32,000 nt of DNA from Verrucomicrobiota bacterium (GCA_021294815.2 CP095464.1:600001-632000), one strand, 5' to 3'; shown: positions 3,150 through 31,047, counted from the first letter of the stretch. Notes: generated by a model not told the origin, from the sequence alone. A program made the numbers and translations.

Positions 3150-3776
3150 TTAAGCCGAAGGTTCCGTTACCGGCTTTCGATCAATGACCTCGTCAACAAT
3201 TCCGTACGCTTTCGCTTCGAGGGCCGACATGTAGAAATCGCGGTCGGAGTCCTTTTCGACTTTCTCAATTGGCTGTCCTGTACACTCCGATAGAACGCTT
3301 GTCAAGGTTTTTTTCCAGCGAAGAATCTCTTTAGCAGCAATCGAAATATCCGAAGTCTGGCCCGTTGCCTGTCCCGAAGGTTGGTGGATCATAACACGAC
3401 TGTTGGGAAGCGCGTAACGTTTCCCATGCGTTCCGGCGGCTAAAAGGACCGTCGCCATGCTCGCTGCTTGTCCGATGCAGTACGTGATGACATCGCAATT
3501 CATGAACTTCATTGTGTCATAAATCGCCATGCCCGCGGTCACACTGCCTCCCGGGGAGTTGACGTAAACGTGAATCGCTTTTTTCGGGTCTTCCATCTGC
3601 AAAAACAGCAGTTGTGCTACGACCGCGTTAGCAACAAAGTCGTCAATGGGTGTCCCAAGAAAAATAATCCGATCCTTCAGTAGCCGGCTGTAGATGTCCC
3701 ACGAGCGTTCCTGGCGGCCATCGCGCTCATAAACGTAGGGAAGCGGCAAATAGGTCTGATCCGAAATCTGAACCAT
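3150..3776 (-). CDS. clpP: ATP-dependent Clp protease proteolytic subunit
   Basis: Strong ClpP pattern: [27 protein letters not shown], catalytic Ser in GQAASMA and His in MIHQP. It lies directly downstream of tig. Confidence 0.95.
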
Positions 3777-3780
3777 GATG

Positions 3781-5343
3781 CTATTTCGTTTCTTCGGTTA
3801 CGGAAGAGCGTTTGGAGGATTTACGCGGAGCTTTAGCGGTCTTGCTCTCTTCCTTATCTTCGGAAGTTTTTGCTTTTTTGCTCTTCGTTTCTGATTTTTC
3901 CTTTTTGGGCTTCGCCTCTGTTTTTTCTTTAGACCCCTCTTCAAACTTGGTCACTTCCTCGGTTTTTGGTGCGTCGGGATCTGTAAAATTCGGGAATCGT
4001 TTTAGATTTTCAACCAAAATGAAGTCGAGCGTTTTTCCAAATAAAGCACGGCGTTGGAGATCATGGATGCGTTCGCGGTCATTCCGAATTTCGTTCAAAA
4101 ATCGATCCGGAGAAAGCCGTAACATCGCAGCCTCTTGAGTGACCATTTGCATTAGCTCCTGATTCGTTAGTGTAATCTTTTCAAGTTCGGCGATCTTTTC
4201 GAGGATAAAGTTAATTTTCGCGCGATCATGCGAAAGCTCCTTGGTATCCTCAAACAATTGGTCCTTGTTGGCGTTGATCTCGTCGATGGAGACGCCTTCA
4301 TTGATCTGGCGCTCAATAAAACCGCGGACGATGTGGACCTGTTCATAACTCGCAGAACTCTCAGGAACCTCAAAATTCATCTGATCGATCAATGCCCGGA
4401 CGACGGTCTCTCGCTGCTCAAAACGCTGCGTTTGGATTTTTCGTTGCTTGAGATTTTCTTTAACATGTTGCCGGAATGCTTTGAGATCCTCTTCGTGGAT
4501 TTTCTTGAAAAACTCGTCACTTAATTCGGGGAGGATTTTTTCGCGAACTTCAAAGACTTTGACGTGATAGAGCGCTTTCTTTCCGCGAAGGTCTTCAACT
4601 TCAAAATCTTCTGGATAGGTCATGTCGACGTCCTTTTCTTCATCGATGCTCATCCCGATAATGCCTTCAATAATCGCTTTTACACCAGGCGATTCAGTGT
4701 TACCAGCTTCTTCCCAGGTGTTATCTTGGGCAGCCCAAATCGGCGCAACTTTTACCTTTTCGGCAATCGGTGTCCCGTCCTCAAAAGTTCCCCGGTATTG
4801 TAAGCGCACGAAATCTCCTTTCTTTGCCGGGCGTTTGACGATATTGTACTCCGCGTGATGATTGCGAATCTCTTCAACAGCCTTGTCGACTTCTTTGTCG
4901 GTAACCTCGACGTTTGGGTTTTCGATTTCAATGTTCTTGTAGTCGATGAGCTCAAACGTTGGCTTTAAATCGACTGTAAAGGTAAATTCACGATCACCAT
5001 TCTCGAGTTTTTTAGAAGTAAACTTCGAAAGCGAAAAGACATCCCAGCTCTGTTCTTTAACAAGATCATCAAAAATCTTTTGGGCAATCGTCTTGTCTAC
5101 CTGCTCCCCAAGCTCCTTCGTGTAGCGTGACCGAATCAGCGAGAGCGGTACTTTTCCTTTGCGAAACCCAGGGACTTTCACCTGTTGGGCGAACGTACTC
5201 AGGACGGAACTTTCCTCTTCCTGGACCACCGCCTGTGGGACGGTTACAACGGCCTCCTTGCAGACCGAATTGATCGACTTGATATCACTTTTCACTGAAA
5301 ACCTTCCGCTAGAGCTCTCTAAGGAGGTTGTTAGGGGCGTCAA
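3781..5343 (-). CDS. tig: Trigger factor with an unusually long Lys/Glu/Ser-rich C-terminal tail
   Basis: Ribosome-binding signature PGFRKGKVP, a central FKBP-like region and the conserved tig-clpP order. The last ~75 aa are low-complexity K/E/S-rich sequence. Confidence 0.9.
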
Positions 5344-5345
5344 CC

Positions 5346-6770
5346 TTATAAAAATTTTTTATCACCAAGATAATATTTCAAGAGAAATGGGGGTAGCATT
5401 TCAATCGCATTCCCAAGCAACATGATTATAAAATAAAGTGTCTTATTTTCGAAGTGAATTTCTTCCGGCGGAATAAACCCGATGCCATAACAGAAAAGAC
5501 ATGAAACAATAGCGATAGTACAAAGAAGAATCATGCCAATATTACCTCCAGGGACTTTATAGGCACGCGGTGTTTTCGGGAATTTGAAACGCAAAATGAT
5601 TCCCGAAAGAAACATGAAGGTATAAATAATAAGGATCGATTGTGTTGTGACGGCAGATAGGATCCAGAAACAAGCTTTCACGGAGGGGATGAGTAAAAAA
5701 AGTCCCGCGAAAAAGGTAATGACGACCGCTTGCCAAAGCATAATGGTCGAAGGCATACCCGCAGCGTTGATCTTTTGGAGCGAAGTGGGGAGTTCGCCAG
5801 TTTTCGCAGCGGCGAGTAAACTCCGGGAAGGTCCGGTAATCCAGGCCATAAACCAGGCAACAGCGCCAAGGGCCATTAAACCGGCAATCGGACGCGTCCA
5901 GTTGGAGAGGTTGAAGTGTTCTAATAGTACTTCAATCGCTTGGATGACACCGGCTTCGAGCGTCAGCGTTGCTTTGGGAACTGAAACCGCAATCGCCAGT
6001 GAACCTAAAATGGAAACCCCTAAAATAAGTAGTGTCGAAATGAGAATCGCTCGGGGGTAATTTTTTTGTGGATTTTCGACATTATTAGCATGTGCTGCGG
6101 ACATCTCTAATCCGCTAAAGCCCAACAAAACTCCAAGAAACAAAACACACTGTTCTGCGCCTTCAAAAGGGGGAATTAATTCGGCCCATCCAACAGGTGT
6201 ACAAAGTTTGTGCCCAGTAATGATCCATCCGAGACCGAGAGCAATAATCAGCGCTCCGGGAATCAGGGTTCCACAAATTGAACCAATACTCGTAACGAGA
6301 CTTGCCAGGCGCATTCCGTGTAGGCCAATAAAGGTTTCAGCCCAGGTAACGACGAAGATCACGCCAAAGGTGTAGAAATTCGCAATATTGAGACCGGTAT
6401 CGCTGACCGCCATCCATTCCGGGTGTCCAAAGGCATAGGCGAGAAGGGGAGCTAGATAAGCAAGACACGCCGGACAAGCAACGGCATTCCCTAAAAATTG
6501 AAGCCAGACGACGAAAAATCCCGTTTTACGCCCGAGCGCTTGGCTGACCCAATAAAAGATCCCACCTTCACCCGGGAAACCGGTCGCCAGTTCGGCGGCA
6601 ACCAGTGCTTCGGGAATTAAAAATAAAAAGACGGCTGCGAGATAGAAAAAGACCATCGAAAAGCCGTATTCCGCCATCGCCGGGAGATTGCGGAGGCTGA
6701 CAATGGCCGCACAATTGATCATCGCGAGCGCGAAAACGCCTAAAAACTTCTTGGGCGCAGTACTTTTCAT
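5346..6770 (-). CDS. APC-superfamily amino acid permease (glutamate:GABA antiporter / YjeM-like)
   Basis: 474 aa with about 12 predicted TM segments. The N-terminal pattern FxLAMINxxAIVSLRNLP...GFSMVFFYL...AAELATGFPGEGGIFYWV resembles the GadC/YjeM subfamily. Confidence 0.8.
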   Translation of the reverse strand: MKSTAPKKFLGVFALAMINCAAIVSLRNLPAMAEYGFSMVFFYLAAVFLFLIPEALVAAELATGFPGEGGIFYWVSQALGRKTGFFVVWLQFLGNAVACPACLAYLAPLLAYAFGHPEWMAVSDTGLNIANFYTFGVIFVVTWAETFIGLHGMRLASLVTSIGSICGTLIPGALIIALGLGWIITGHKLCTPVGWAELIPPFEGAEQCVLFLGVLLGFSGLEMSAAHANNVENPQKNYPRAILISTLLILGVSILGSLAIAVSVPKATLTLEAGVIQAIEVLLEHFNLSNWTRPIAGLMALGAVAWFMAWITGPSRSLLAAAKTGELPTSLQKINAAGMPSTIMLWQAVVITFFAGLFLLIPSVKACFWILSAVTTQSILIIYTFMFLSGIILRFKFPKTPRAYKVPGGNIGMILLCTIAIVSCLFCYGIGFIPPEEIHFENKTLYFIIMLLGNAIEMLPPFLLKYYLGDKKFL

Positions 6771-12018: not shown

Positions 12019-12153
12019 AACTGACGTGTTTCTCGTGAAAAAATTTCACTTGACGGTATAGCGAATGCTGCTAGCGTCAGCACCAGTCGGAGACTTTGCG
12101 AACAGCGGGCGGGGGTCAGTATCTCCGCTCTTTTTGTCACCGGAAGCGTAGTT

Positions 12154-13407
12154 ATGAAGACGGGTAGTGAGATTTTGGCGGTTCTCGAGTATATGGAGAA
12201 GGAGAAGGGGATCCCGCGGAGTACGATGATCGAAACGGTCACCGAGGCCATTCGGTCTTCCGCGCTAAAAAGCATTAACGCCGGGTACGACGTCCGTGTC
12301 GAAATCAATCCTAAGACCGGCAATCTTCAGGCGTGGTCAATTCTCGAAGTCGTCGATTCCGTCAGTGATCCACAAGCCCAGGTCCATATTAATAAGGCCC
12401 GAGAGACTCATCCCAACGTCAATATCGGTGATGTGATTGAACGCGAGATTGATCCTGTAACGCTCGGGCGTATCGCAGCCCAGGGCGCGCGCCAGGCTAT
12501 CTTCCAGGGGATCCGTAACTTCGAACGCGAGAAACTTTACGAGGACTTTAAAAATTCCGTTGGCGATATCGTCAGTGGTATTGTCCGGCGCCAGGATATG
12601 GGAAATATCTACGTCGAGCTCGGTAAGTCCGAGGCCCTACTGCCTCAGCGCGAACGTATTCCAGGGGAAGAGTATGTGCCTGGCGACCGTATTCGTTGTC
12701 TATTGCTCGCGATCGATCAAACACCGCATGGCCCCGAGATTATTTTGAGCCGTTCCCATGGGCGTTTTGTTCGCCGCCTTCTGGAAATCGAGGTCACGGA
12801 AATCGCTGATGGGACCGTAGAGATCGTCAGCATGGCGCGTGAGCCGGGATATCGGACGAAAATCGCCGTCCGGAGCAAAGATCCCAAGGTCGATCCCGTT
12901 GGCTCCTGCGTTGGCGCACGCGGTGTCCGGATTCGCAGTATCGTTAAGGAACTCGGGGGCGAGAAAATCGATGTCATTCGCTGTAGCGATGACCCGGTAG
13001 CATTTCTACAAGAAGCCATCCATCCTGCGGTGCCGTTGAACGTCAAGCTCGATGAGGTTACGCACCAGATGAGCTTCGAAGTTCGAGAGGAAGACCTGGC
13101 GGTAGCGATCGGGAAGCGGGGACTCAATGCCCGTCTGACCTCCCGATTACTCGGTTGGCGCCTCGATATCAAAAAGGCAGAATCGGAGCAGGAAAAAAGT
13201 CTGAATAAAAAAATTCAGAAGGCGACAGAAGGCCTCAATAATATCCCCGGTATCGACGATGCAATGGCTCAACGTCTGGTCGCATGTGGTTTTACGGATG
13301 TCGATGTGTTTGATGACGTCACGGAAGAAGATTTGCAGGACGCAGGTTTTTCGCTCGACGAATCGCGGTTCATACTTGAAAATATCGGAAAATTCAAGAA
13401 GGCTTAG
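12154..13407 (+). CDS. nusA: Transcription termination/antitermination factor NusA
   Basis: N-terminal [13 protein letters not shown], an S1 domain ([10 protein letters not shown]), tandem KH domains ([29 protein letters not shown] and [11 protein letters not shown]), and the conserved nusA-infB order. Confidence 0.95.
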
Positions 13408-13415
13408 TCGCGGAA

Positions 13416-15863
13416 ATGAGCATTCGGGTGTATCAGTTGGCTAAGGATTTGGGCCTCGATAATAAGCAGGTCATGGCGTTATTGCGTGACCGTGGCCTGA
13501 AAGTGATCAGTGCGTCGAGTTCCATTCCGAACATTTACGCCGATGCGTTGGCAGAGGAGCTTAAAATCACACCCGCATCAAAAGCGACACCAGAGCCGAC
13601 AACAATTCGAGTTCCCCTTGATGATGCGCCAGAACCTAGCGCTGCGCCCGCTGTTCCAAAGATAGAAGTTGTTCCAGCACGGAAACCTGCTTCTGTACCT
13701 GCCGTCCCTAAGGTACAGGGACAGGGAGATGCCGCAGAAATACAAAGTGTCCGTCGACCTTCTAAACCTTTTATTGAGCGGAGTGAAGGCGCTAATAGTC
13801 GTTCAGAACCACATCCAGCGGGCGGTAATGCCATCAAGATCCCATTGCCCAAATTAGGCGCAAAAAAACCTGTGAGCTTTACCTCTAGGACAGAAACTCT
13901 TGGGTTGGAATCGCCAAGCGAGCGGGCAAAACCGAGCCGTCCGCCAGAGGTCATTCTTCCAGGGCGCAAAAAAAATACCGAAAAGTTTACGGATAAGCGG
14001 TCGGCACCAACGGTCCATTTCGAGTTACCTTCTCGAAAACAACGCCCGTTAGAAAACAAAATTCCGATCCAGAGGACGGAAAAAACAGAAGAATCGGTAC
14101 AGGAACTTAAGACACTCGTTTGTAAGGCGCCGATTATCGTCCGCGATTTTGCCCAAAAGATCGGCATTAAGCCGTTTCAGCTGATCTCGATCCTGATGCG
14201 TCAGGGGATTTTTGCCTCGATGAATCAACAGATCGCTGATGAGATCGCTATCGATATTGCCCAAAAATACGGCTATCTACTTGAGGTTCGTCAGAAATCG
14301 GATCTTAACCGTCCAGCGCCGCAAAAACCCAAAGTCGTCATCCCGAAGGAAATTTTACCGCGTCCGCCCGTGGTGTGTGTGCTCGGTCACGTTGACCATG
14401 GTAAGACGACGCTACTGGATTTTATCCGCCATACAAGCGTTGTCGCTGGCGAAGCAGGAGGCATTACGCAGCATACCGGGGCGTATCAGGTCGAGTGCGA
14501 CGGTAAAAAAATCACATTTTTGGATACTCCGGGACACGCGGCGTTTTCCAGTATGCGCGAGCGCGGTGTCGAGGTCACGGATATTGCGATTTTAGTCGTT
14601 GCCGCCGATGATGGATTTATGCCTCAAACCGATGAGGCGTTAAAATTTGCCCAAAAGGCGGGCGTTCCAGTCGTTGTTGCGATTAATAAGATCGACGCTA
14701 AGGGTGCCAATCTCGATCACGTCAAACAACAGATGCAGCAGCGGGGGATTGCGCCGGAGGAGTGGGGCGGCGATACGCTTTGTGTAGGTATTTCGGCGCT
14801 CAAGGGGACGAATATCGATGAGCTTCTGTCGCTCGTACTTTTGCAGGCGGAGATGATGGAACTGAAAGCCGATTACAAATGCCCGGCAGTAGGCGTCGTT
14901 ATCGAGTCCCAGATCGATACAGGGCGCGGTCCGGTCGCAACGGTCATCATCCGCGAAGGAACGTTAAAAGTCGGTGATGCCTTGGTCTGTGGCTCGAAGT
15001 ATTGTCGAGTACGCTCGATGCTCAATGAACGTGCCGAGGTCGTGAAGGCGGCGACACCCTCTACACCGGTTAAAATTATCGGTTGGAGTGGTGTACCGGA
15101 AAATGGAGCAGTTTTTGAAACCGTCAAAGACGAAAAGACGGCAAAGAATCAGGCCGAAGAGTACGCAATTAACGAGAAAAGATCGCATGCGGAACCGGTT
15201 CCGAAAATTGCCAACATGAAATCGCTTTTTGAGGCGATTGAGTCGCAAAAGCAAAAGGTCCTGAAGGTTGTCGTTAAGTGCGATGTCCAGGGGACGCTTG
15301 AGGCGCTCATTCAGTGTTTGGAGGCGATTAAGAGCGATCGCGTAAAGCTTGAGATCTTAGATTCTGGCGTCGGCGCGGTTTCACAGAGCGATGTCGAGTT
15401 CGCGAGCTCATCGGGGGCGTTGATCGTTGGCTTTAACGTCAAAAAAGATAACGGAGTGGCGCCGCTGGCGAAAAATAAGGGTGTCCGTATCTTGTTGCAC
15501 GACATCATCTATGAGCTCATCGATCAGGTCAAAGAAGCGATGTCCGAGTTGCTCGATTATGAGTATACAGAGGAGCACCTCGGAACGGCGGAGGTTCGTC
15601 AGGTTTTTGAGCTTGCGAAGGGGACAGTTGCGGGGTGTATGGTGATCGATGGCCAGATTGCCCGTGATAAGCCGATTCGCGTCCGGCGGAACAATGAGGT
15701 GCTGTTTGAAGGCAAAATCGATTCGCTCAAGCGGCAGAAAGAAGACCAGTCCGAGGTGCGTTCGGGGTTTGAGTGCGGGATCAAAGTCGAAGGATTTTCA
15801 GATTTTGAAACCGGTGACACTCTCGAAAGCTACGATCGAATCCGTCATCTACAAAAGCTATGA
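13416..15863 (+). CDS. infB: Translation initiation factor IF-2
   Basis: N-terminal [13 protein letters not shown], a Pro/Ala/Lys-rich linker, and G-domain motifs [17 protein letters not shown] and NKID. Confidence 0.95.
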
Positions 15864-16213
15864 GTGTTCGATTGGAGCGGATGAATGAGGCGATCGCGCA
15901 TGAAGTTAGCGCGGTTTTGCGAAAAAACTTTCGCGAGGAGGCGGCTATGGTGACGATTGTTGGGGCGCTCGTTGCCCCAGATTTAAAGTCTGCCATTGTC
16001 AAATATTCCGTTTTAGGCGATCCGGTAGCTAAACACCAATTGGCAAAATTTTTTTCGAAGCATGGTCTTTTAATTAAGAAGGAAATCGCACATCGCCTCC
16101 AACTACGCAATGTCCCGGAACTTAAATTTTCCGTAACCGATGCGATCGCGAAGGGAAACCATCTCATTGAAGTATTGGACACGATTGCTCCTGAGGATAC
16201 CCTTGTGGAATAA
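15860..16213 (+). CDS. rbfA: Ribosome-binding factor A
   Basis: 117 aa. Patterns R..RMNEAI.HEVS, V..DLKSA.V.YSVLG and LR.VPELKF..D. An ATGA overlaps the infB stop. Confidence 0.85.
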   Translation: MSVRLERMNEAIAHEVSAVLRKNFREEAAMVTIVGALVAPDLKSAIVKYSVLGDPVAKHQLAKFFSKHGLLIKKEIAHRLQLRNVPELKFSVTDAIAKGNHLIEVLDTIAPEDTLVE

Positions 16214-16250: not shown

Positions 16251-16457
16251 ATGAGCAGTGTAGTTAAATGGGGGTTAATTTTGTTACTTTTATCTATTTC
16301 AGGTGGGTGTAGTTCCGAAAAAAATTCTTCGTCGCGTCTTCCGTGGGCTGTCCCAGCGAACTGGGAACTGCGCCGCAATATTACAGCCGATGTAAATGTC
16401 CAAAAGGTCTACAGACCGGCCGACTTCAACAAAACCAAGACAGGGAAGAAATTTTAA
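16251..16457 (+). CDS. Small putative lipoprotein (68 aa), first gene of the pilus/T2SS-like module
   Basis: A hydrophobic signal sequence (GLILLLLSISGGC) ends in a lipobox-like GGC and is followed by a Ser-rich linker. No homology recognised. It lies 30 nt upstream of the next ORF. Confidence 0.4.
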   Translation: MSSVVKWGLILLLLSISGGCSSEKNSSSRLPWAVPANWELRRNITADVNVQKVYRPADFNKTKTGKKF

Positions 16458-16487
16458 GCGCTGTCGCAGGGGTGATAGGGAAGTTGG

Positions 16488-17747
16488 ATGGCTGCAGACT
16501 CTTTAGTTTTATGCATTGCTAACGAAGCGGTCAGTTTGTGTCATGTTGCGCATCACAAGGGATGTTGTCGTCTACAAGAGGTTCAAGTTACGAAATATGA
16601 CACGAAGCAGGAGCTTTCGGTGGCATTGGGAAATTTTTCTCCAAAAAAATTAAAAAAAGTCCGCGTCATTGTCGTTGCACTGCCTTGGGTGCGTTGCTTG
16701 CCGCTTGAGGTATTTTTTGCACGCGAGGAACATTTTTGGCAGAGCGCAGTTTTTGAATTAAAACAGACTCTGGGCGAGGATTTCTCGGCTTTTGAGATTG
16801 AGTTGTATCGCACCGATGGCCGTGTCAATGCCTTTCTATTCGAAAAGAAGAAACTCATTTTACTACGTGGAATCCTGGCGCAATTTGGGATTAAAAAAGC
16901 AAAATTTATTTCCTCTACTGCGGCGTTTCTCAACGAAATTCCGCACACTGAATCTCGCATATGTTGGAGTTCATTTATTGCAGATGAAATCGAGGCAACA
17001 TGTTTAGAACCGATTGAACCGTTGTTGCCAGCAATTTTTACGGCAGTGGCGTCGCATCGAAATACGGCAACATATCGTTCGATAAACGTTCAGGCAACAT
17101 CGCGTGGTTTTAAGCGATTTTTTCGACAAAAGGAATGTGTTGTCGGTGTGCTGTGCTTAATGGTGGGTTTATTATTTTGTGTCCAGCATTTGGGAGGTGT
17201 CGAGCGGGAATGGGATGAGCGAAAGCAAGAGCTCGTAGTTCATCGAGATCAGCTATCGAAACTCGCGCAGCAAATCGACCAGGCACAGCAAAGACTTCTG
17301 CAGAAACAGGATCTCTTGGGTGATGTTGTTGTTTATGATCAACAAAATCACGCCTGGAATGTGTTTTTTAGCCAATTGCAAACCATTTTGTTTCAAACCG
17401 GAGATGTATTTTTAACCGATTTTCAGTGGCGGGTTGCGATATCGCCTCAAGATGCGCCAACGAAGAACTCCTCAAAAAAGAGGCAACTCCGTGAGAAACC
17501 AGCCGTTAACGACAGTCTACTTGAAAAAGTTCCAGCCTCGATCGAGCTTGCGGGGGCGATATTTATCGAGAATTCCCAGGATTCCGGACATTGGAATGCG
17601 CCCATGAATCAGATGTTCGACGCGTTAAGGAAAATTGCCGAAGTCGATGACATTTGCGAAATTAAAGTAAACGCGCCTACGATGGGAAAAATCACATTTC
17701 GTTGCCGGCTGCGATTAAAGCCAGATGCGGAACTTCTTGCGATATGA
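16488..17747 (+). CDS. Bitopic inner-membrane protein with GspL-like / fused PilM-PilN-like architecture
   Basis: Cytoplasmic region of about 215 aa with a PilM/GspL-like pattern (VVALP...FE.KQ.....F..E......V.A.L..K..L......L..FG.K...F.S...AF). A basic patch RGFKRFFRQK precedes a single TM (aa 217-232, nt 17136-17183). A Gln-rich coiled coil (aa ~238-275) follows. The periplasmic alpha/beta domain has a PilN-like pattern (WNVFFSQLQ...VFLTDF...IELAGA...FRCRLRLK). Confidence 0.5.
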   Translation: MAADSLVLCIANEAVSLCHVAHHKGCCRLQEVQVTKYDTKQELSVALGNFSPKKLKKVRVIVVALPWVRCLPLEVFFAREEHFWQSAVFELKQTLGEDFSAFEIELYRTDGRVNAFLFEKKKLILLRGILAQFGIKKAKFISSTAAFLNEIPHTESRICWSSFIADEIEATCLEPIEPLLPAIFTAVASHRNTATYRSINVQATSRGFKRFFRQKECVVGVLCLMVGLLFCVQHLGGVEREWDERKQELVVHRDQLSKLAQQIDQAQQRLLQKQDLLGDVVVYDQQNHAWNVFFSQLQTILFQTGDVFLTDFQWRVAISPQDAPTKNSSKKRQLREKPAVNDSLLEKVPASIELAGAIFIENSQDSGHWNAPMNQMFDALRKIAEVDDICEIKVNAPTMGKITFRCRLRLKPDAELLAI

Positions 17748-19270
17748 ACCGATGCGTATCCAAGTATTGGAAATATGGGAGCTGGTTGGGAATTTTACTG
17801 TTCAACCTCGTGCTCGTTAGTCAAGTCGTACAGCGATCGATACAAATTTCCCAGAACCGTGAGCATTGCGCGGTGTTGACCTCGGAAATCCAACAATTGC
17901 GGCAACGACAGCCGCCGCCGACAGTGGAAAATTACCATCAGCTCCAACAAGAATTAGCACAGTGTGATCAAAAGTATGCCACAATTACGAGTAAAGTGCG
18001 AAAAATCGATTTGCCATTTCTGCCGCAATCGGAGGCGCCCAACGAAGTCGATTTCTATTTTCTGGTGATGGCTTACCGCCGATTCTTGGCGGAATGTGCC
18101 CAGAAGATGAGAGTTCTTATCCCCCAAAATTGTGCGTTTGGGTTTGAAGCGCACGCTACCAAAGAGGTTGTGCCACCCAAGGAAACTTTAGCGAAATTTA
18201 CCGAGCAATGCGCAATCGCGGCTAGAGTGTTGGTCTTGCTGTTTGGCGCTAACGATTACGGGATGGAGTTTCAAAAAATAACGCGTGAAACGTTAGCGGC
18301 AGAGGAAAACGAATCCAAAACACCAAAAGAAAAGAAGCAATTCCCGCGTTCCGAAAAGGTGAAGTCGTATCGTTTTACGCTCGAGTTTTCCAGTTATACA
18401 CGCGCCTTGCGGACATTTTTGAATCGTGTCTTGGAGTTTGGATTACCGGTGATTTGGCGCGAGATTACGATCCATGTGAATCCGACGGCGCATCCAGAGG
18501 CTGCCACTTCCGCGGATCCGGTAAGCGTAAAGCTGGTATTTGATTGGATTTTTCCGCGTCCTTACATCACAGAGTCTCAGGATTTAAATTGTACAGAGCT
18601 AAAGGCAGTACCTGAAGAAAGAGGAGAATTCTGGAGTGATCCTCCTCAGGCCCCCCGAGGTGAGGCATGGACATTTGACCTTTTTACTCCGCCAACGATT
18701 GTACTTAAAAATGACCATTATCAGGCGACATTGCCGTGGCTACCGCAACCTAAACCGGAAACAAGAGTTGTGTTTGCATGTACCGCTTTGGAGCGTCTAT
18801 TGTATCCAATTCAGCTTTTGGGTTACATAATTCCGCCCCCGGATGCATCTGGAGTATCGCGACCCCATTTCTTTTTAAAAAACGTGGAGACGCAGGAGAG
18901 TTTTCAGGCGACGTTAGGAGATACAGTAACGGCACATTCGCTTGAATTAGTGGATTTTAACGAGCGTGGCCCCGAAAATTGCCAGCAACTGAATCTTCTG
19001 GATCACGAGCTTTCACGCGAAGAAATTTTAACGCCGGAGACGAAATATGACACACAACGAGTCAAAGTAAACTTAGAGTACAGGGAAGAATTGATAGAAC
19101 CCGATGCAGACGCCCTAGAATCGGAAACGAAAACAGTTTCACTGACGCATATCGGCGAAAATTTTAAGATCGGTGACCGCCAGTACACGCTGACTTCCGT
19201 TGATGATGCGGTAAAACGTGTTACTTTAGAATGTGATGGGGAAATGATCGAGGTCGCACTAGAGAGTTAA
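17744..19270 (+). CDS. PilO-like / Amuc_1100-like membrane-anchored protein with a ~230 aa beta-rich C-terminal extension
   Basis: The ATG at 17744 overlaps the upstream stop (ATGA). It has an N-terminal TM (WLGILLFNLVLVSQVV) and a coiled coil (EIQQLRQRQ...LQQELAQ). Blocks FYFLVMAYRRFLAECAQKMRVLIPQNCAFGFE and YRFTLEFSSYTRALRTFLNRVLEFGLPVIWREITIHVN align by eye with my recollection of Akkermansia Amuc_1100. C-terminal segments (FDLFTPP, YPIQLLGYII..., FKIGDRQYTLTSVDDAVKRVTLE) are reminiscent of PilP / GspC-HR domains. Confidence 0.5.
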   Translation: MNRCVSKYWKYGSWLGILLFNLVLVSQVVQRSIQISQNREHCAVLTSEIQQLRQRQPPPTVENYHQLQQELAQCDQKYATITSKVRKIDLPFLPQSEAPNEVDFYFLVMAYRRFLAECAQKMRVLIPQNCAFGFEAHATKEVVPPKETLAKFTEQCAIAARVLVLLFGANDYGMEFQKITRETLAAEENESKTPKEKKQFPRSEKVKSYRFTLEFSSYTRALRTFLNRVLEFGLPVIWREITIHVNPTAHPEAATSADPVSVKLVFDWIFPRPYITESQDLNCTELKAVPEERGEFWSDPPQAPRGEAWTFDLFTPPTIVLKNDHYQATLPWLPQPKPETRVVFACTALERLLYPIQLLGYIIPPPDASGVSRPHFFLKNVETQESFQATLGDTVTAHSLELVDFNERGPENCQQLNLLDHELSREEILTPETKYDTQRVKVNLEYREELIEPDADALESETKTVSLTHIGENFKIGDRQYTLTSVDDAVKRVTLECDGEMIEVALES

Positions 19271-19305: not shown

Positions 19306-19335
19306 TTGACAAATCCCCCGAAATTTAGCTAATAT
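19306..19335 (+). promoter_or_regulatory. Sigma-70-type promoter candidate: TTGACA-N18-TAATAT
   Basis: Perfect -35 TTGACA (19306-19311) preceded by a T-tract, and a near-consensus -10 TAATAT (19330-19335). It lies about 30 nt upstream of the ATG at 19365, which has an AGGGG Shine-Dalgarno-like element. Confidence 0.5.
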
Positions 19336-19364: not shown

Positions 19365-20699
19365 ATGGAGACAGAGCACAGCATCTCACGCAATTTTATG
19401 GAGCCTTCCTACGCGTATTTGATTGAGAAAAAGCGCGATGGCGAGGAGTTTACGGATGAAGAAATCCGGTTTATTACAAGTTCGATTCTCGATAAGACGA
19501 TCCCTGATCACCAACTAGCGGCACTCGCGATGGCAATTTATTTTCAAGGGATGACGCCTCAGGAAATCGCGGTCTTGACCGAGGAAATGATGTTAACGGG
19601 AGAGGTTTTCGAGTTGCCGCGTATTACCCGTCCCAAGCTCGACCGTTACGCAACGGGGGGTGTTGGTGATAAATCAGGGCTTGTTTTAATTCCCCTTGCA
19701 GCGGCTTGTGGTATTGCGGTTCCATCGATGATCGGCGAAGAGGAGGGTTTTGTGATTAGCGATCTCGATAAACTACGGTCGATTCCGGGATTTCAAGCAG
19801 AAATTCCCAACGACCAGTTCATGAAACAGCTCCAGCAGGTCGGTTGTGCAATCATCGAACAACGCCCTGAAATTACGCCCATTAACAACATTCTCTACAA
19901 AATGCGAAAAGAGACCGGGACCGTTCCGAGTATCCCGCTTCTCACGAGTGGATTGCTGAGTAAGAAGTTTTCAGAAGGTGCCGATGGACTCGTCGTCGAT
20001 GTCAAATGGGGGAATGGAGCCTATGTGCGCGATGTCGAGAGTGCAAAGCAGCTTGGGCGTATGGTGACGCGGGTCGCAAAGTCGATGAACCGTAAATGTG
20101 TGGCGTTGGTGACCGATATGAACCAGCCTTTGGGAAGTTGCGTCGGAACGGGACTTGAGATGCAAGAGGTACTGCGTCTCCTGCGTGGCGAAAGTGATCC
20201 TGATCTCGACGAACTCATTTTACGCCTCGGGATGGAAATGGTCCGTCTTGCCGGTGTTGCCGGGTCCACCTTATCGGCGAAACAAATGGTCCGGAAACAT
20301 TTAACGGATGGCGTCGCACTGGCTAAGTTGCGGCAGATGGTCGAAGCCCAGGGCGGCGACGGCAGCTATATTGACGACCCCGAAAAGTTCCCGAAAGCAA
20401 AGTACGTTAAAAAATTGCCGGCCTCTAAGCGGGGTTATGTTCATACGATCAACGCCGGAATGTTGGCCCATGGCGTCAAGATTCTCGCCCAACGACGTGA
20501 CGGCAGTATCGACCATGCGGTTGGTGTTTCTGAAATTAAAAAGATCGGCTACCAGGTGAAGCAAGGAGAAGCGCTGATGATGATTCATTATAATGATGAG
20601 ATTAATCTCGAGTCGGCCTTAGAATTTTTACGTTCGTCGTACCGCTTGGCGCCGAAACGCCCAGTGCAGAATGATCTGATTGTGGAGCGTGTCGCATGA
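19365..20699 (+). CDS. Thymidine/pyrimidine-nucleoside phosphorylase family protein with degenerate active-site loops
   Basis: Colinear with DeoA/Pdp along its whole length: LIEKKRDGEEFTDEEIRF, LAALAMAIYF, TGGVGD, SIPLLTSGLLSKK, and the PYNP_C-like end GVSEIKKIGYQVKQGEALMMIH. The glycine-rich loop SGRGLGHTGGT is replaced by IGEEEGFVISD. Start chosen at the ATG with a Shine-Dalgarno element; the ATG at 19398 is an alternative. Confidence 0.8.
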   Translation: METEHSISRNFMEPSYAYLIEKKRDGEEFTDEEIRFITSSILDKTIPDHQLAALAMAIYFQGMTPQEIAVLTEEMMLTGEVFELPRITRPKLDRYATGGVGDKSGLVLIPLAAACGIAVPSMIGEEEGFVISDLDKLRSIPGFQAEIPNDQFMKQLQQVGCAIIEQRPEITPINNILYKMRKETGTVPSIPLLTSGLLSKKFSEGADGLVVDVKWGNGAYVRDVESAKQLGRMVTRVAKSMNRKCVALVTDMNQPLGSCVGTGLEMQEVLRLLRGESDPDLDELILRLGMEMVRLAGVAGSTLSAKQMVRKHLTDGVALAKLRQMVEAQGGDGSYIDDPEKFPKAKYVKKLPASKRGYVHTINAGMLAHGVKILAQRRDGSIDHAVGVSEIKKIGYQVKQGEALMMIHYNDEINLESALEFLRSSYRLAPKRPVQNDLIVERVA

Positions 20700-21508
20700 G
20701 GACGTTGTTTGATCCGCAAAAACTACTCATCATCGCTGGTCCATGTGCGCTCGAATCGCGCGAACTGGCATTTGAAGTTGCGCACTACCTCTTGGAGATT
20801 CAAAAGGTTTGCCCGGAAGTTGAAATTATTTTCAAAACTTCATGCGATAAGGCGAACCGTTCATCGGTCCATTCGCAGCGGGGAATTGGGTTTGATCAGG
20901 GGTTACCCATCTTGTGTGAACTCAAAGAGGCGACAGGATTACCGATTATATGTGATGTCCATCTTCCTGAACATACAATGCGTGTCGCAGAAGTTTGCGA
21001 TGTTTTGCAAATTCCCGCGTTTCTCTGTCGACAGACTGATCTCTTGAGAGTAGCTGCGGAAACCGGGCGTGTGATCGCTGTTAAGAAAGGGCAATTTTTA
21101 TCACCGGAGGAGATGCGTTTCGTCTTTGAAAAACTCAAGATCTTTGGTGCTACGGAAATTTGGCCTATGGAGCGTGGGGCAACCTTCGGCTATCACAATC
21201 TCGTCGTGGATATGCGTAGTTTCCCTATTATGCGGCAGTTTTCGCCTGTTGCGATCTTTGATGCGACCCATAGCGTGCAGATTCCGGGAACAAGTGCAGG
21301 TGTAACGATGGGGCATCGTGAGTTCGTCGAGAATTTGGCTTATGCGGCGCTCAGTGCGGGTGCGAATGGACTCTTTTTTGAAGTCCATACCGATCCGGAT
21401 CATGCAATTTGCGATGCTGCGAACCAGTTGGATGTCCATAACTTTCTCGACGTTATCCGCAATTGTGTCCGCTTCTGGCTGCTTCGCCGTACGATCGAGA
21501 ACGCGTAA
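20696..21508 (+). CDS. kdsA: 3-deoxy-D-manno-octulosonate 8-phosphate synthase (Cys-type, presumably metal-dependent)
   Basis: AGPCALES (Cys where class I enzymes have Asn), KTSCDKANRSS, QIPAFLCRQTDLL, DATHSVQ and FFEVHTDPD. An ATGA overlaps the upstream stop. Confidence 0.9.
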   Translation: MRTLFDPQKLLIIAGPCALESRELAFEVAHYLLEIQKVCPEVEIIFKTSCDKANRSSVHSQRGIGFDQGLPILCELKEATGLPIICDVHLPEHTMRVAEVCDVLQIPAFLCRQTDLLRVAAETGRVIAVKKGQFLSPEEMRFVFEKLKIFGATEIWPMERGATFGYHNLVVDMRSFPIMRQFSPVAIFDATHSVQIPGTSAGVTMGHREFVENLAYAALSAGANGLFFEVHTDPDHAICDAANQLDVHNFLDVIRNCVRFWLLRRTIENA

Positions 21509-24538: not shown

Positions 24539-25663
24539 TTAACGGTTTTGCGCGGCTTCTCTTTCTTGCCAAATGGGACGGGCTTTTTGCTCAATCTCCG
24601 TGGCTATTTCTTCACCGCATTGCTCGCGTAGTAGGGCGAGTAATGCGTCGTACTTTTGAAGTTCGGCATGGTAAATGGCCAGTTTAATGCCATCCTCGAA
24701 AACAAGTTCTAACGCAAATTGCAGGCGAGCAACAGGATCCTTCCCGTTCGGATCCTGCAAAAGAATATTTCGGAGCGCATTAAAATCTGCAACAGGATCT
24801 TGGGAAGAACGAAGTTGTTTGAGTGCCGAGTTGTTTAAAATTCTGCGAGCGGCATGAAGACCGAGCAGCGATTTTAGAAAATCAAAATCTTGTTGAAATT
24901 CTGGTGAGGTTGGAGCATTTCGGTAAAGCAGGCTTTTGGCTTCCGTCACGCGTCCCGGAAAAGAAATTGCACGTACAGCGGCCTCAGCGGCAATTTCGTG
25001 GCCGAAAACGCTATTCATGCGATCCAATTTTTCATGGAATTCCGGCGATCGAAAGCCCTCATTGGTAGAAATTAAGCTGTGAGTGTAGTGCACGGCGATA
25101 ATGCCAGGCAGTGTATTCCACAAAATGTTATGGCCGAATAACTTCTGGATTTTTCGTAACTTTCGACGAAATTCGCGAAACGTTTTTCCTTCAATGAGAT
25201 CGCCATCCTGATCGATAATCTCTTGGGTATAAATTGCTAAAGCATCTTCTGCTGCCGAAATACCATTACTGGTGCTGTAGGCGACATTTTTCTCCTGAAT
25301 GGATTTGAAACTAAATTCGTTACCAGTAAGCTGTGGGTTCCGAAGGGTTTCCAGAAAATAGCGCTGTAAAACATGCCACATGACGAATTTATCGAGACGC
25401 ATCAAGTGCCAGTTGGGGATCGAACGTTCGGCATGTAGACAGGCATTGTGGAGCTCATCAGACTCAGGACCATATTGCCGGCATACCTCGAGGAGATAAC
25501 TCGTCCAGGTGCCTTCGCTGGTATTTCCATCCAGGCTATCGGGAAATGAATCTATCGCGACAAGCGGCGGCAGCTCGACCTCTGGAGGGGTTCCAGCGTG
25601 AACAGCGGAAACAGAAAAGAGTCCAATAGATAACGACAAAACAAGCTTTGAATAACCAACCAT
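24539..25663 (-). CDS. Hypothetical secreted, predominantly helical protein (374 aa)
   Basis: Clear signal peptide (LVLSLSIGLFSVSAVHA/GT) and an AGGAG element upstream of the ATG. No domain recognised. It is divergent from grpE-dnaJ. Confidence 0.6.
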   Translation of the reverse strand: MVGYSKLVLSLSIGLFSVSAVHAGTPPEVELPPLVAIDSFPDSLDGNTSEGTWTSYLLEVCRQYGPESDELHNACLHAERSIPNWHLMRLDKFVMWHVLQRYFLETLRNPQLTGNEFSFKSIQEKNVAYSTSNGISAAEDALAIYTQEIIDQDGDLIEGKTFREFRRKLRKIQKLFGHNILWNTLPGIIAVHYTHSLISTNEGFRSPEFHEKLDRMNSVFGHEIAAEAAVRAISFPGRVTEAKSLLYRNAPTSPEFQQDFDFLKSLLGLHAARRILNNSALKQLRSSQDPVADFNALRNILLQDPNGKDPVARLQFALELVFEDGIKLAIYHAELQKYDALLALLREQCGEEIATEIEQKARPIWQEREAAQNR

Positions 25664-25797
25664 ACCCGCCTGTTACTCCTGATAAACACTTTGTGTAAGT
25701 CAAGCGGAATTGTACGCGACAAAGTTTTAGGGGGCATCCGAGAAAAAGTTTGATTGACATTGGATTTTTGCTACACACTGGGCGTAGTTGATTGAAT

Positions 25798-26463
25798 ATG
25801 AGTGGACGCAAGAACCATCGGTCAAAATTTTTCCATAAGCCAATGCGTGACCCCTCTCAAAGTATAGCGGAAGCCCGAAGGGAAGGGGATAGTTTTCAAG
25901 ATTCTCCAGGTGCATCTTCCGATACTGAGCGGTTGGAACGCGAACCTGTTCGTGCTGATACACAAGCCACGGATGAGGATATCAGTGTGCCTAAAGATAT
26001 CTTGGGCGATGTCGCGATTGTTTCGGACCTTTCAAAGGAATTGCAGCAGTTGCAAGAACGACTAGTCCATACCCAAGCGGATTTTGATAATTATCGTAAG
26101 CGTGTTACGCGGGAGCAAGAACAGCTCCAGCGTCAGGCCGCAAGTGGCGTGATCGAAGCGCTCTTGCCAATTTTAGATAATTTTGAACTCGGACTTAATT
26201 CCGTCCAGGCCGAAGCGGGAGTTTTATCGGGATTCCAGATGATTTTTACCCAGTTACAGTCGCTGTTAAAGGCGCGCGGAGTCGCTATTTTGGCTCCGAA
26301 AAATGAGCCCTTTAACCCGCAACAAGAGGAGGCTGTCGCTTACGTGAACCATGACGATGTTCCGGAGGAGTACGTTGTCGAAACCGTAAGGAAGGGGTAT
26401 TGTTTGCACGATCGTCTGTTGCGTCCAGCGTCTGTTGTCGTGTCGAAGGGAAGGGCATCATAA
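25798..26463 (+). CDS. grpE: Nucleotide exchange factor GrpE (long acidic N-terminal extension)
   Basis: The LQERLVHTQADFDNYRKRVTRE coiled-coil signature, ALLPILDNFE, and the C-terminal beta-domain patterns FNPQQEEAV, GY.L.DR.LRPA.V.V. The ATG at 25798 is preferred over the TTG at 25792. Confidence 0.85.
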   Translation: MSGRKNHRSKFFHKPMRDPSQSIAEARREGDSFQDSPGASSDTERLEREPVRADTQATDEDISVPKDILGDVAIVSDLSKELQQLQERLVHTQADFDNYRKRVTREQEQLQRQAASGVIEALLPILDNFELGLNSVQAEAGVLSGFQMIFTQLQSLLKARGVAILAPKNEPFNPQQEEAVAYVNHDDVPEEYVVETVRKGYCLHDRLLRPASVVVSKGRAS

Positions 26464-27606: not shown

Positions 27607-28272
27607 TCAGTCAGTCTGTCGCGAGGCGATTGTGTTTTCCGCTTCTTGCTTTAGTGGCCCAATGGCGTCGAGTAACTCTTCGAGGCTGGGGTTCACCTTG
27701 ATGTTGTGTTCGCAGACCTCTTGGGCGTGTTTGAGGAGACGTAATGCACGCTTCGGACGGTCGTCACTAAGATAGTGCTGTGCCGCTGAAACCAGGAGCG
27801 CTGGGTTATCCGGAAAAATGTTGACGATGAAATCAAAGATCTCGAGTCCCGCGTCGATATTTAGGGCAGAAAGCGTCTCGGCAAGACGAAGATAGGTGTA
27901 GGGGACAGCGGCTCCTCCCGGAGACAATAACGTTAAAAATTGAAACATTGCAACTGCTTGCGGTAACTGTTCCTGGACGACTTGCTTTTCGGCATAATCG
28001 CTCAAAATGCGTACATCATCCTCGCTGGCAGAAGCAAAGACATCCTGCATATTACCACCCGTCTTACTCCGCTCGTACAGTCGTCCGAGAACCGCTGCAC
28101 ACTCGGGATCAAACGTAAACAAATCGAGCGCATTTCGGTAGATTTCGATGACAGCAGGAGTGCTCTTGACAGAAGCGCCCAGTGCCATCGGTACGCCGCC
28201 TTGCGACAAAACCTCCTGCATCATCTTTTCAATCCTATCACAAAACAAACCAATTTCCCCAGCATCACCCAT
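27607..28272 (-). CDS. Hypothetical helical-repeat (TPR-like) protein, no signal peptide
   Basis: 221 aa. The C-terminal ~130 aa show TPR-like helix pairs (AVAMFQFLTLLSPGG..YTYLRLAETL, GLEIFDFIVNIFPDNP, LLVSAAQHYLSDDRPKRALRLLKHAQEV). It lies 43 nt downstream of dnaX on the same strand. Confidence 0.55.
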   Translation of the reverse strand: MGDAGEIGLFCDRIEKMMQEVLSQGGVPMALGASVKSTPAVIEIYRNALDLFTFDPECAAVLGRLYERSKTGGNMQDVFASASEDDVRILSDYAEKQVVQEQLPQAVAMFQFLTLLSPGGAAVPYTYLRLAETLSALNIDAGLEIFDFIVNIFPDNPALLVSAAQHYLSDDRPKRALRLLKHAQEVCEHNIKVNPSLEELLDAIGPLKQEAENTIASRQTD

Positions 28273-29638: not shown

Positions 29639-29675
29639 GTTTTTATTTGCTCTCGAGACTGTGATAGATTGTGGG

Positions 29676-29703
29676 TTGCATTGCCGTAAAGAGTTGCTAT
29701 GGT
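29676..29703 (+). promoter_or_regulatory. Promoter candidate for the TPR gene: TTGCAT-N16-TATGGT
   Basis: TTGCAT at 29676-29681 and TATGGT at 29698-29703, 18 nt upstream of the ATG at 29722. Confidence 0.3.
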
Positions 29704-29721
29704 TTTCAGTCGTCGAGGAAG

Positions 29722-31047
29722 ATGTCGTGGCGTCGGAAAGTCTTAAAACTAGCGGTATGCCTGGGGATGAGTTGCTCGAGTGTCGGCGCAGATCGCTTTA
29801 CGCAGTCGCTCGAGGAAGCCCGCATTAAGCTCGCTGAAAAAGAACCACGCGAGGCCATTCGTCTGTTGGAGCGCTGTGTCCGTTTGCGTGGAAAGAATGC
29901 GGAGATTTCCGAGCTTCTTGCCCAGGCCTGTGTAGCCGATGAGGATCTAGAGCTTGCGGCATTTTATTTCGAAGAAGCGGCAAGTACGGATGAGTTGAAG
30001 TACTACTGCTATCTTCGAGCAGCGGAATTATACCAGCAGCTTTCGGAACCGACGCAGGCGCTCCAGTGCTATGAGGAGTATTTAAAGATTTGGCCCAATG
30101 ACCGTACGGCAGCGCTAGGGTATGCGAATCTAAAGTCACAAGCAGGAGATCGGCAGCGCGCTTTGGAGATTTTTGTCGCGCATGCAGATCATGATGTTGA
30201 TGTCTGCTTAAAAGTCGCAGATTTGTTTCAGTCTTTTGGTAATTTAACACAAGCGCGTATCGGATATAACGCCGTCTTAGAGATCAATCCCAATCACCGC
30301 GAAGCGCTTCATCAGTTGTGGCATTTGTACGTCCAGTCAAAAAATTATGCGGCGTTAGTACCTGTTGCGCAACGTTTACGCGATCTCGGTGAGTCAGAAT
30401 ACCAGGGCGTTCCGCTTGATCTATTTCTGTCGGTTTCAAAGGGTTATGAACAGGCATTTGATGCGCTTTTAGGCCCCGATATGGCTTTTTTATCAGGACC
30501 GATACGGATAACGCTACCTTCTTGGGTTTGGCGTCCTATTGCGATTACGACAATGCCCTCAAAACTCTTGAGTAAAAAGGAACGCCTCAAAGGACTCGAA
30601 GAAAAGGTCGTTGATGCAAAATCTAAGGGCGATTACGAGGAGGCGATCGCGAACCTCTGGCAAATCCTCGGTATGAACGGTAAAAACGTTGATGCGTGGA
30701 TCGAGCTAACGGAATGCCTCGAGCATATCAATAAATACGATATTGCGGAGATGACCATCCAGGAGGCGATGAAGTCTCAGCCGTCGGTCGAACTCTATAG
30801 GGCCTATTTGGGGATCATTTTGCGTACGCACGGGTCGGCGGAGTATGTCCGGATTTTGCGAGATATTAAGCACAAGTTCCCTAAAGACGCGGATCTTCGG
30901 TTAATGTGGGCCAAAGCGCGCGAGATGTATTTGGGTGACGCCACTGGAGCACGCCGCTCGTACGAAAAGTTCCTAAAGCTAGCGCCACCGGATCATCCCG
31001 AGACTGATCTCGTCCGTCGCCGGTTGGCCACTTATCAACATTTGTAG
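29722..31047 (+). CDS. Secreted (possibly lipid-anchored) tetratricopeptide-repeat protein
   Basis: Start taken at MSWRRKVLKLAVCLGMSCSS (signal peptide). There are multiple TPR-like units, e.g. AELYQQLSEPTQALQCYEEYLKIWPND, ADLFQSFGNLTQARIGYNAVLEINPNH and ARRSYEKFLKLAPPDHP. Confidence 0.7.
   Translation: MSWRRKVLKLAVCLGMSCSSVGADRFTQSLEEARIKLAEKEPREAIRLLERCVRLRGKNAEISELLAQACVADEDLELAAFYFEEAASTDELKYYCYLRAAELYQQLSEPTQALQCYEEYLKIWPNDRTAALGYANLKSQAGDRQRALEIFVAHADHDVDVCLKVADLFQSFGNLTQARIGYNAVLEINPNHREALHQLWHLYVQSKNYAALVPVAQRLRDLGESEYQGVPLDLFLSVSKGYEQAFDALLGPDMAFLSGPIRITLPSWVWRPIAITTMPSKLLSKKERLKGLEEKVVDAKSKGDYEEAIANLWQILGMNGKNVDAWIELTECLEHINKYDIAEMTIQEAMKSQPSVELYRAYLGIILRTHGSAEYVRILRDIKHKFPKDADLRLMWAKAREMYLGDATGARRSYEKFLKLAPPDHPETDLVRRRLATYQHL

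Follow-up and report, generated by a model that had tools for sequence, protein, structure and literature searches.

A compact, divergent relative of the Akkermansia Amuc_1098–1102 cluster downstream of nusA-infB-rbfA in a Verrucomicrobiota bacterium

The Akkermansia protein Amuc_1100 is a heavily studied, host-active "pili-like outer membrane protein", whose machine is poorly understood. Papers citing Davey et al. 2023 describe Amuc_1098–1102 as the MUL2 locus, needed for mucin acquisition, and regard Amuc_1101 as PilM and Amuc_1100 as PilO/PilN-like (PMC13174399; PMC12418764; bioRxiv 10.64898/2025.12.30.696933; PMC10688800). The Akkermansia loci that we retrieved with an Amuc_1100 query sequence, which was itself compared with PDB entries (one residue differs from the deposited sequence), carry Amuc_1102, 1101, 1100, 1099 and 1098 in one orientation, and NCBIfam confirms all five. 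Here we analyse a stretch of 32,000 nucleotides from a Verrucomicrobiota bacterium (GCA_021294815.2, CP095464.1:600001-632000), hereafter the window, in which three open reading frames (ORFs) at positions 16251-19270 form a module that is tied to this cluster by homology and architecture. The module is probably a reduced alignment sub-complex of a MUL2-type (Amuc_1098–1102) filament-like machine, a reading to which we are led by the NCBIfam and fold matches of ORF3 and ORF2, by the gene order 1101-1100-1099, and by an Opitutaceae locus (L088) where a PilM_2 protein, a fused ORF3-like protein and a secretin stand side by side. The parts of the module are as follows.

16251-16457, + strand: putative lipoprotein of 68 amino acids with signal peptide and Cys20 (ORF list, orthologue alignment)
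16488-17747, + strand: ORF2, 419 amino acids (ORF list)
16488-17135, + strand: predicted cytoplasmic half-actin domain of ORF2, PilM/GspL-like, residues 1-216 (AlphaFold2 (AF2) model, Foldseek, alignments)
17136-17192, + strand: transmembrane (TM) helix of ORF2, residues 217-235 (hydropathy peak 2.35; aligns with the TM helix of Amuc_1101 and of the L088 PilM-like protein)
17193-17747, + strand: predicted periplasmic part of ORF2, residues 236-419, a long helix/coiled coil and then an alpha/beta domain in the PilN position
17744-19270, + strand: ORF3, 508 amino acids (ORF list)
17744-18553, + strand: N-terminal half of ORF3, residues 1-270, with TM helix 11-29, helices and a ferredoxin-like core (NCBIfam, AF2, Foldseek)
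18554-18694, + strand: fusion linker of ORF3, residues 271-317, disordered in the model, with a predicted local distance difference test score (pLDDT) below 50 at residues 275-295
18695-19270, + strand: beta-rich domain of ORF3, residues 318-508, in the Amuc_1099/PilP position (about 15 strands, pLDDT about 95)

The lipoprotein ORF, ORF2 and ORF3 follow rbfA (15860-16213) on the + strand in this order. An earlier note on this DNA had reported three co-oriented ORFs, separated by 37 nt between rbfA and the lipoprotein ORF and 30 nt between the lipoprotein ORF and ORF2, with an ATGA overlap between ORF2 and ORF3, and our coordinates agree with it exactly; ORF3 was taken from the ATG at 17744, whereas the mechanical ORF begins at the TTG at 17702. 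NCBI annotates two of the three as proteins in a Verrucomicrobiota metagenome-assembled genome (MAG), ORF3 as an "Amuc_1100 family pilus-like protein" and ORF2 as "hypothetical", and these protein calls, together with the conservation of the gene order in five related loci (L001, L003, L089, L006 and L007), indicate that the ORFs are real genes and have not arisen by chance.

The core order of the Akkermansia cluster, in which a PilM-like/TM protein is followed by an Amuc_1100-like and then a beta-rich protein (1101-1100-1099), is preserved in the window. The N-terminal half of ORF3 has the fold of Amuc_1100 and matches its hidden Markov model (HMM), and ORF2 aligns with Amuc_1101 from end to end. 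The window differs in that no Amuc_1098 secretin lies downstream, where deoA is found instead, and in that the 68-residue lipoprotein, rather than an Amuc_1102-type protein, occupies the upstream position. In addition, the PilM domain of the window is without its second lobe, the Amuc_1100-like and Amuc_1099-like proteins are fused with the loss of one TM helix, and the module is located after nusA-infB-rbfA. The fused proteins of Opitutaceae (for example HUJ42170.1; locus L088) resemble ORF3 in having a two-domain chain with a single N-terminal TM helix and a PilM-like/TM protein encoded upstream. Their identity to ORF3 is about 21%, and they differ further in lacking the small lipoprotein and, in L088, in having a full-length PilM_2 domain in the partner protein (PF11104, E 9.5e-10) and a secretin directly downstream.

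Compared with the PilMNOP proteins of the type IVa pilus (P. aeruginosa and M. xanthus; 5eox, 2rjz, 3jc8), the module has an actin-like PilM fold in the cytoplasmic part of ORF2, a PilO-like fold in ORF3 and a gene order that parallels pilMNOP, and both ORF2 and ORF3 are predicted to be bitopic, each with a coiled coil and an alpha/beta domain in the periplasm. It departs from PilMNOP in that ORF2 and ORF3 do not match Pfam PilM_2, PilN, PilO or PilP, PilM and PilN are fused with the PilM part being half-length, the domain in the PilP position is not recognizable as PilP and has a TM anchor or a fusion partner in place of a lipid, and pilQ is missing downstream. ORF2 unites in one polypeptide an actin-like part in the cytoplasm, a TM helix and a predicted ferredoxin-like domain in the periplasm, which is the layout of GspL of the type II secretion system. 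Family HMMs of GspL, GspM and GspC do not match the module proteins significantly, the gsp operon context is missing, and the nearest sequence relatives are of PilM type.

The NCBIfam model Amuc_1100_fam (NF038287) matches residues 24-253 of ORF3 with an E-value of 1.7e-12 and 47.4 bits, against a curated cut-off of 180, and Pfam PF28028 is recorded for a protein identical to ORF3; identity to Amuc_1100 itself is about 16%. A profile search of 1.84 billion representative proteins yielded 470 relatives, 79 of which were used to build the AF2 model. As this 79-sequence alignment was too diverse for a genome scan, a narrower one was used there, which returned four loci, all from close relatives. 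The model has a mean pLDDT of 86.8 and consists of an N-terminal TM helix, long helices, an alpha/beta core, the linker and an all-beta domain. Foldseek against the PDB places Amuc_1100 structures first (6lad, 6kny, 6laf; E 2.5e-8 to 4e-7, probability 1.0, target TM-score 0.64-0.75), followed by PilO (3jc8_Oa and 2rjz with E about 3e-3 and probability 1.0; 5uvr with a target TM-score of 0.62), so that both the N-terminal TM helix and the helical/ferredoxin-like core known from 6KNY and 6LAD are present in the model. At the level of sequence, Pfam PilO (PF04350) and PilN (PF05137) gave no HMM match to ORF3, GspL_C was reached at chance level (E 1.3), and Pfam scans of all three module proteins returned nothing significant. 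Searches of PDB sequences with the single proteins gave chance matches only, and the ORF3-family and beta-domain profiles had no meaningful match there. On the strength of the model and family matches we assign the N-terminal half of ORF3 as a predicted Amuc_1100/PilO-like protein, which upholds the likeness to Amuc_1100 proposed in the earlier note.

The second half of ORF3 corresponds to a protein that relatives encode in a separate gene downstream, here joined in frame to the first half. In L001 and L003, the nearest relatives with shared synteny, the two halves are encoded separately, as a 262-residue Amuc_1100-family protein and a 249-residue protein with its own N-terminal TM helix, with a 4-nt overlap between the genes, and the Puniceicoccales MAG loci are likewise split (L005, 292 and 277 residues; L006, 312 and 286; L007, 303 and 292). 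The fused, single-TM form is found in the window, in L004 (whose ORF3 is about 88% identical to that of the window), in L089 (539 residues) and in many proteins of about 520-585 residues, including HUJ42170.1 (564 residues) from Opitutaceae. The linker stands where the relatives have a stop codon, a start codon and a TM helix between the two genes, and the loss of these three elements would account for the fusion. Trees of either half group the split L001 and L003 with the window and L004 as sister pairs and leave the fused L089 outside this group; the fusion therefore arose more than once. Because it recurs in the lineage of the window and L004, in L089 and in Opitutaceae, we suggest that the two halves interact physically. 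That Amuc_1100-like and Amuc_1099-position proteins have become fused in three or more lineages speaks for direct 1:1 contact between them, like that of PilO with PilP.

By sequence, the similarity of the beta-rich domain to Amuc_1099 appears weak but specific. The NCBIfam Amuc_1099 model (NF042425) did not match the domain at E<=1. A profile of 45 beta-domain sequences scored Amuc_1099 orthologues at 16.6-20.8 bits over the last ~100 residues (the C-terminal third), compared with 1.9 bits for the next best of 442 background ORFs and 7.7 bits for the best of 2000 shuffled Amuc_1099 sequences, and hhalign in local mode aligned the domain with Amuc_1099 at E 1e-3 and a probability of 21%. Against the PDB, the fold retrieved nothing convincing, the matches being to beta-propellers and eIF5A with TM-scores near 0.1, and no HR domain of PilP or GspC was matched by sequence or fold. 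Of the architecture that had been proposed for the third protein, the TM helix, PilO-like domain and beta-rich extension are borne out, whereas the PilP/GspC-like segments find no sequence or fold support.

ORF2 is predicted to be an Amuc_1101-type PilM-PilN fusion with a GspL-like layout and a truncated actin-like domain, in keeping with the half-actin PilM+PilN or GspL arrangement put forward in the earlier note. The NCBIfam Amuc_1101_fam model (NF045709) covers residues 218-352 only (E 2e-4, 20.3 bits, cut-off 650), and Pfam and TIGR models, including PilM PF11104 and TIGR01175, gave no match. In hhalign, a profile of the seven Puniceicoccales ORF2 proteins could be aligned over its full length with Amuc_1101 plus the PilM_2 protein of Opitutaceae (probability 67%, E 5e-5). 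The profile also detected the PilM_2 protein through the periplasmic part, in which the most conserved block of the family is located (21 bits, E 1.8e-6). With the Opitutaceae member added, a PDB search with the family profile reached M. xanthus PilM (E 6.7e-8), compared with E 0.78 for FtsA. The AF2 model of ORF2 is weak overall (pLDDT 54), since few relatives were found, the sequence search giving just two further clusters; residues ~1-145 reach a pLDDT of 60-87. The top Foldseek match of this model is P. aeruginosa PilM (5eox, E 5.8e-6), followed by GspL 4pht, EpsL 1yf5 and 5tkw, and then FtsA, and the target TM-scores of the GspL/EpsL cytoplasmic domains (4pht, 1yf5, 5tkw) are 0.38-0.43. 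The hydropathy scan shows one strong TM helix at residues 217-235, while a weaker stretch at 58-76 falls within the predicted cytoplasmic beta-sheet. The PilN-like character of the periplasmic part lies in its secondary-structure pattern, within a low-confidence region of the model and without a PF05137 match.

The alignments leave no equivalent in ORF2 for Amuc_1101 residues ~175-320, that is, the ~145 residues of the second actin lobe, and the cytoplasmic part accordingly comprises ~216 residues compared with ~370 in Amuc_1101. Judging by how strands and helices succeed one another in the model, the retained part would comprise subdomains 1A and 1C; its strand 1 reads LVLCIANEA, which may stand in place of a phosphate-binding motif of actin-like ATPases. 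With its second lobe deleted, ORF2 is neither a PilM with both lobes and a nucleotide site nor a full-length member of the Amuc_1101 family, which combines a two-lobed PilM with a TM helix and a periplasmic domain. The loss is graded, as the lobe is complete in L005-L007 and L088 (562-625 residues), partial in L001 and L003 (479-484 residues) and absent from the window (419 residues) and L089 (457 residues). We note that the window (16488-19270) and the distant L089 (8339-11620) share a short lipoprotein (68 and 69 residues), a lobe-less PilM-like protein and a fused ORF3. These reductions appear to be convergent, because L001 and L003, the sister loci of the window, have a split ORF3 and a partial lobe.

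The first ORF encodes, as the earlier note had it, a putative lipoprotein of 68 residues, with a hydrophobic N-terminus followed by a cysteine that is invariant in four orthologues. The orthologues in L001, L006, L007 and L089 have in common the hydrophobic leader, the invariant cysteine and the motif LPW.RP..W..R.I, and residues G19, C20, P31, W32, P35, W38 and R42 are identical in the window, L001, L006 and L007. The length of the protein is 117-139 residues in MAGs with a full-length PilM-like protein, compared with 68 in the window and 69 in L089. No relationship to Amuc_1102 was detected with NCBIfam NF042424, a custom Amuc_1102 profile or hhalign, which gave an insignificant alignment, and the lipoprotein family profile had no match among PDB sequences. 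Judged by these comparisons, the lipoprotein would be a clade-specific partner and not an Amuc_1102-like subunit. In L005 the gene looks degenerate, with an 86-residue ORF (3670-3930) that reads SLWTPARS where LPWNRPAS is expected.

The usual partners of such a complex are missing from its surroundings. Pfam and NCBIfam scans, a custom secretin profile and a scan for the class III signal motif revealed no secretin, ATPase, platform protein or pilin in the 32-kb window, as had been noted before. Custom profiles found neither a secretin nor an Amuc_1102 homologue in the window or in 136 kb of sequence from eight related Puniceicoccales loci, and the class III motif is absent from the window, L001 and L089. 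This contrasts with Opitutaceae and Akkermansia, where a secretin adjoins the cluster, directly after the fused gene in L088 and as Amuc_1098 in Akkermansia. The one other pilus gene in the window, already recognized as such in the earlier note, is the following.

685-1524, + strand: prepilin peptidase of the PilD/GspO type (PF06750 E 3.1e-25, PF01478 E 2.2e-12; GFGDIKL and IPDR motifs retained)

As this gene is intact, pilin-like substrates are likely to persist in the organism, and the peptidase is a possible partner of the module acting in trans.

All three ORFs are intact and in the same order in at least five related loci (L001, L003, L089, L006 and L007), and ORF2 and ORF3 are intact also in L005; the NusA proteins of these relatives are 79-95% identical to that of the window. 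The order nusA-infB-rbfA-lipoprotein-ORF2-ORF3-deoA-kdsA is kept in L001, L003, L006 and L089, and deoA immediately follows the module in L002 and L004, as it does in the window. In L005 (2830-13515), the segment from the module to deoA is inverted relative to kdsA and rbfA-infB-nusA, and in Opitutaceae (L088) and Akkermansia the cluster is sited elsewhere in the genome. Adjacency to rbfA is thus an accident of gene order at the level of the clade and not a requirement. The earlier note had expected the ORFs to be conserved together, which they are. The rbfA neighbourhood that it stressed is specific to the clade and broken in one relative (L005), a functional link to ribosome maturation is not supported, and its suggestion of a lineage-specific invention is contradicted by the derivation of the module from an already named cluster that is widespread in Verrucomicrobiota (NCBIfam Amuc_1098-1102; MUL2, PMC13174399).

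The module evolves much faster than its neighbours. Between the window and L004, ORF3 has an amino acid identity of 87.5%, with a rate of nonsynonymous substitution (dN) of 0.065, a rate of synonymous substitution (dS) of 0.20 and a dN/dS of 0.33 (0.37 and 0.29 for its two halves), compared with 97%, 0.014, 0.62 and 0.022 for deoA and 97%, 0.011, 0.41 and 0.028 for kdsA. Against L001, the three module proteins are 48-61% identical where NusA is 95% identical, and dN is 0.31-0.40 for the module compared with 0.007-0.03 for ruvA, nusA, deoA and kdsA, with dS being saturated. Since the ORFs are intact in relatives, the dN/dS against L004 is 0.33 and dN against L001 is well below the saturated dS, the module appears to be maintained. 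Binned nucleotide identity to L001 is 92-96% in the backbone, ~78-83% across nusA-infB-rbfA and deoA and 55-68% in the core of the module, with sharp steps near 12000 and at 20400-20800, and the module core ends at the ORF3 stop codon. The pattern marks the module as a hypervariable island that has nonetheless stayed open and under net purifying selection. It is part of a ~8.7-kb block from nusA to deoA that seems to have been imported by recombination from a more distant lineage.

Two further observations concern this region. The synonymous rate of ORF3 against L004 (17825-19267 aligned with 1-1443) lies below those of deoA and kdsA, although its dN is five times higher; recombination and compositional differences are possible causes. 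Nucleotide identity to L001 begins to fall inside rbfA (15860-16213), at ~16018, and RbfA is 69.6% identical to its L001 orthologue with a dN of 0.23, compared with 95% identity for NusA.

Several of these results weigh against a reduced alignment sub-complex. The curated NCBIfam cut-offs are missed by both proteins (47 versus 180 bits for ORF3, 20 versus 650 bits for ORF2), a reciprocal search with an Akkermansia-only Amuc_1099 profile was not significant, the ORF2 model is poor past residue ~145, an entire actin lobe is gone, and secretin, ATPase, platform protein and pilin are absent from the window and from the 136 kb of related loci. Moreover, the dN/dS of the module is more than ten times that of its neighbours (0.33 versus 0.02-0.03) and its proteins are ~50% identical where NusA is 95%, both of which would fit relaxed constraint too. 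The module might be a decaying remnant, a MUL2-type cluster stripped of secretin, Amuc_1102-type subunit, one TM helix and half of PilM. It would no longer build a working machine, and slow decay would be the sole reason for the survival of its ORFs. The replacement by deoA of the secretin found in Opitutaceae and Akkermansia would suit such a remnant, as would the stepwise loss of the PilM lobe, the shrinkage of the lipoprotein from 117-139 to 68 residues, the raised dN/dS relative to deoA and kdsA and the island of low identity within a 92-96% backbone. We nevertheless consider decay unlikely, given that all three ORFs have remained intact in at least five relatives, and ORF2 and ORF3 in L005, across substantial divergence, that each half of ORF3 has a dN/dS clearly under 1, that strongly conserved blocks such as NEVDFYF, WTFDLFTPPTI and GKITFRC persist, that the reading frame is preserved through the fused linker and that ORF3 yields a confident model.

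The module could alternatively be a repurposed scaffold that does without a secretin, a stand-alone complex of the inner membrane and periplasm, serving for example in envelope tethering or host contact, in which fast evolution reflects diversifying selection. A secretin-less cluster is conserved throughout the sampled Puniceicoccales, similar reductions and fusions are seen in two lineages (the window and L089), a clade-specific lipoprotein has been added, and the divergence island is sharply bounded and ends exactly at the ORF3 stop codon. On the other hand, the alternative function is without direct evidence, the intact prepilin peptidase implies that pilin-like substrates remain, the overall dN/dS of 0.33 does not point to positive selection, and the absence of partners is based on ~136 kb of sequence. 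We hold repurposing to be unlikely. The same doubt applies to its fullest form, a lineage devoid of any secretin, ATPase or pilins, with a free-standing scaffold of non-filament function whose divergence stems from diversifying selection and recombination; if true, it would be the first "alignment complex without a machine" known from nature and would bear on what Amuc_1100-type proteins do by themselves. By far the least credible reading is one of divisome proteins, with ORF2 being FtsA-like and ORF3 a bitopic coiled-coil protein like FtsL, FtsB or DivIC. The original annotation of Amuc_1101 was FtsA, Foldseek lists FtsA structures for ORF2 (E 1e-4 to 1e-3), and the TM/coiled-coil region of ORF3 weakly matches DivIC (E 1.8) and FtsL_Actino (E 0.03). 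PilM and GspL, however, rank above FtsA, also in the family profile search (6.7e-8 for PilM versus 0.78 for FtsA), ORF3 matches Amuc_1100 and PilO with probability 1.0, FtsA has neither a TM helix nor a periplasmic domain, and the homologous clusters of Opitutaceae and Akkermansia end in a secretin. We rejected the FtsA/FtsL assignment on this match ranking and secretin context.

We favour the reduced alignment sub-complex, in which coiled coils and ferredoxin-like domains in the periplasm would hold ORF2 and ORF3 together, as in the pairs PilN-PilO and GspL-GspM. The cytoplasmic half-domain of ORF2 may dock the assembly ATPase in the manner in which GspL docks GspE, and the beta domain of ORF3 would, like PilP and GspC, extend toward the outer membrane and could contact a secretin encoded elsewhere. 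The secretin, ATPase, platform protein and (pseudo)pilins would all be encoded at other sites of the genome, and the prepilin peptidase at 685-1524 would process the pilins. The machine may serve in adhesion, uptake or secretion.

A name already exists for the family to which the module belongs, ORF3 carries an annotation and clusters of this type have been published; the module is thus not a new kind of system. Most useful here are the recurrent fusion of Amuc_1100-like and Amuc_1099-position proteins and the outline of a minimal core from which secretin and second PilM lobe are both missing. The relatives support the view of the Amuc_1100 fold as an inner-membrane-anchored, PilO-type alignment component, which always occurs with PilM/N-like and Amuc_1099-position proteins. 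As this core persists under purifying selection without an adjacent secretin, Amuc_1102 or the second PilM lobe, it defines a minimal set of conserved parts on which structural and genetic studies can build.

The transcriptional context of the module is defined by the following features.

12154-16213, + strand: nusA-infB-rbfA (ORFs; Pfam families read from the syntenic L001 and L089 orthologues)
19306-19335, + strand: best match to a sigma-70-like promoter (10/12), between ORF3 and deoA

A terminator-like hairpin is located at 12107-12130, upstream of nusA, and a scan of the window sequence from rbfA to the end of ORF3 revealed neither a terminator-like nor a promoter-like site. Co-transcription of the module with nusA-infB-rbfA, which the earlier note had raised, is plausible, and the promoter match at 19306-19335 likely marks the 3' limit of the transcription unit. 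Rfam and tRNA scans detected no RNA feature in the module region.

The other genes of the window are housekeeping genes, namely clpP, tig, ftsY, an ABC transporter, ruvA, ruvX, deoA, kdsA, pgk, grpE, dnaJ and dnaX. Two tetratricopeptide repeat (TPR) proteins are encoded at 27607-28272 (- strand) and 29671-31047 (+ strand) and have generic below-cut-off matches only, including to PilW and type III secretion system chaperone models; L088 also carries a TPR protein (4664-6343) upstream of its cluster, with no established tie to the module. A 374-residue ORF at 24539-25663 (- strand) is conserved, with a 371-residue gene in the same position in L001, and is without a Pfam or NCBIfam match. A second divergent patch, at 25200-26000 with 64-78% nucleotide identity, covers the N-terminal end of this ORF and the 5' region of grpE. 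The sole RNA gene detected in the window is a tRNA-Val (CAC) at 31881-31957.

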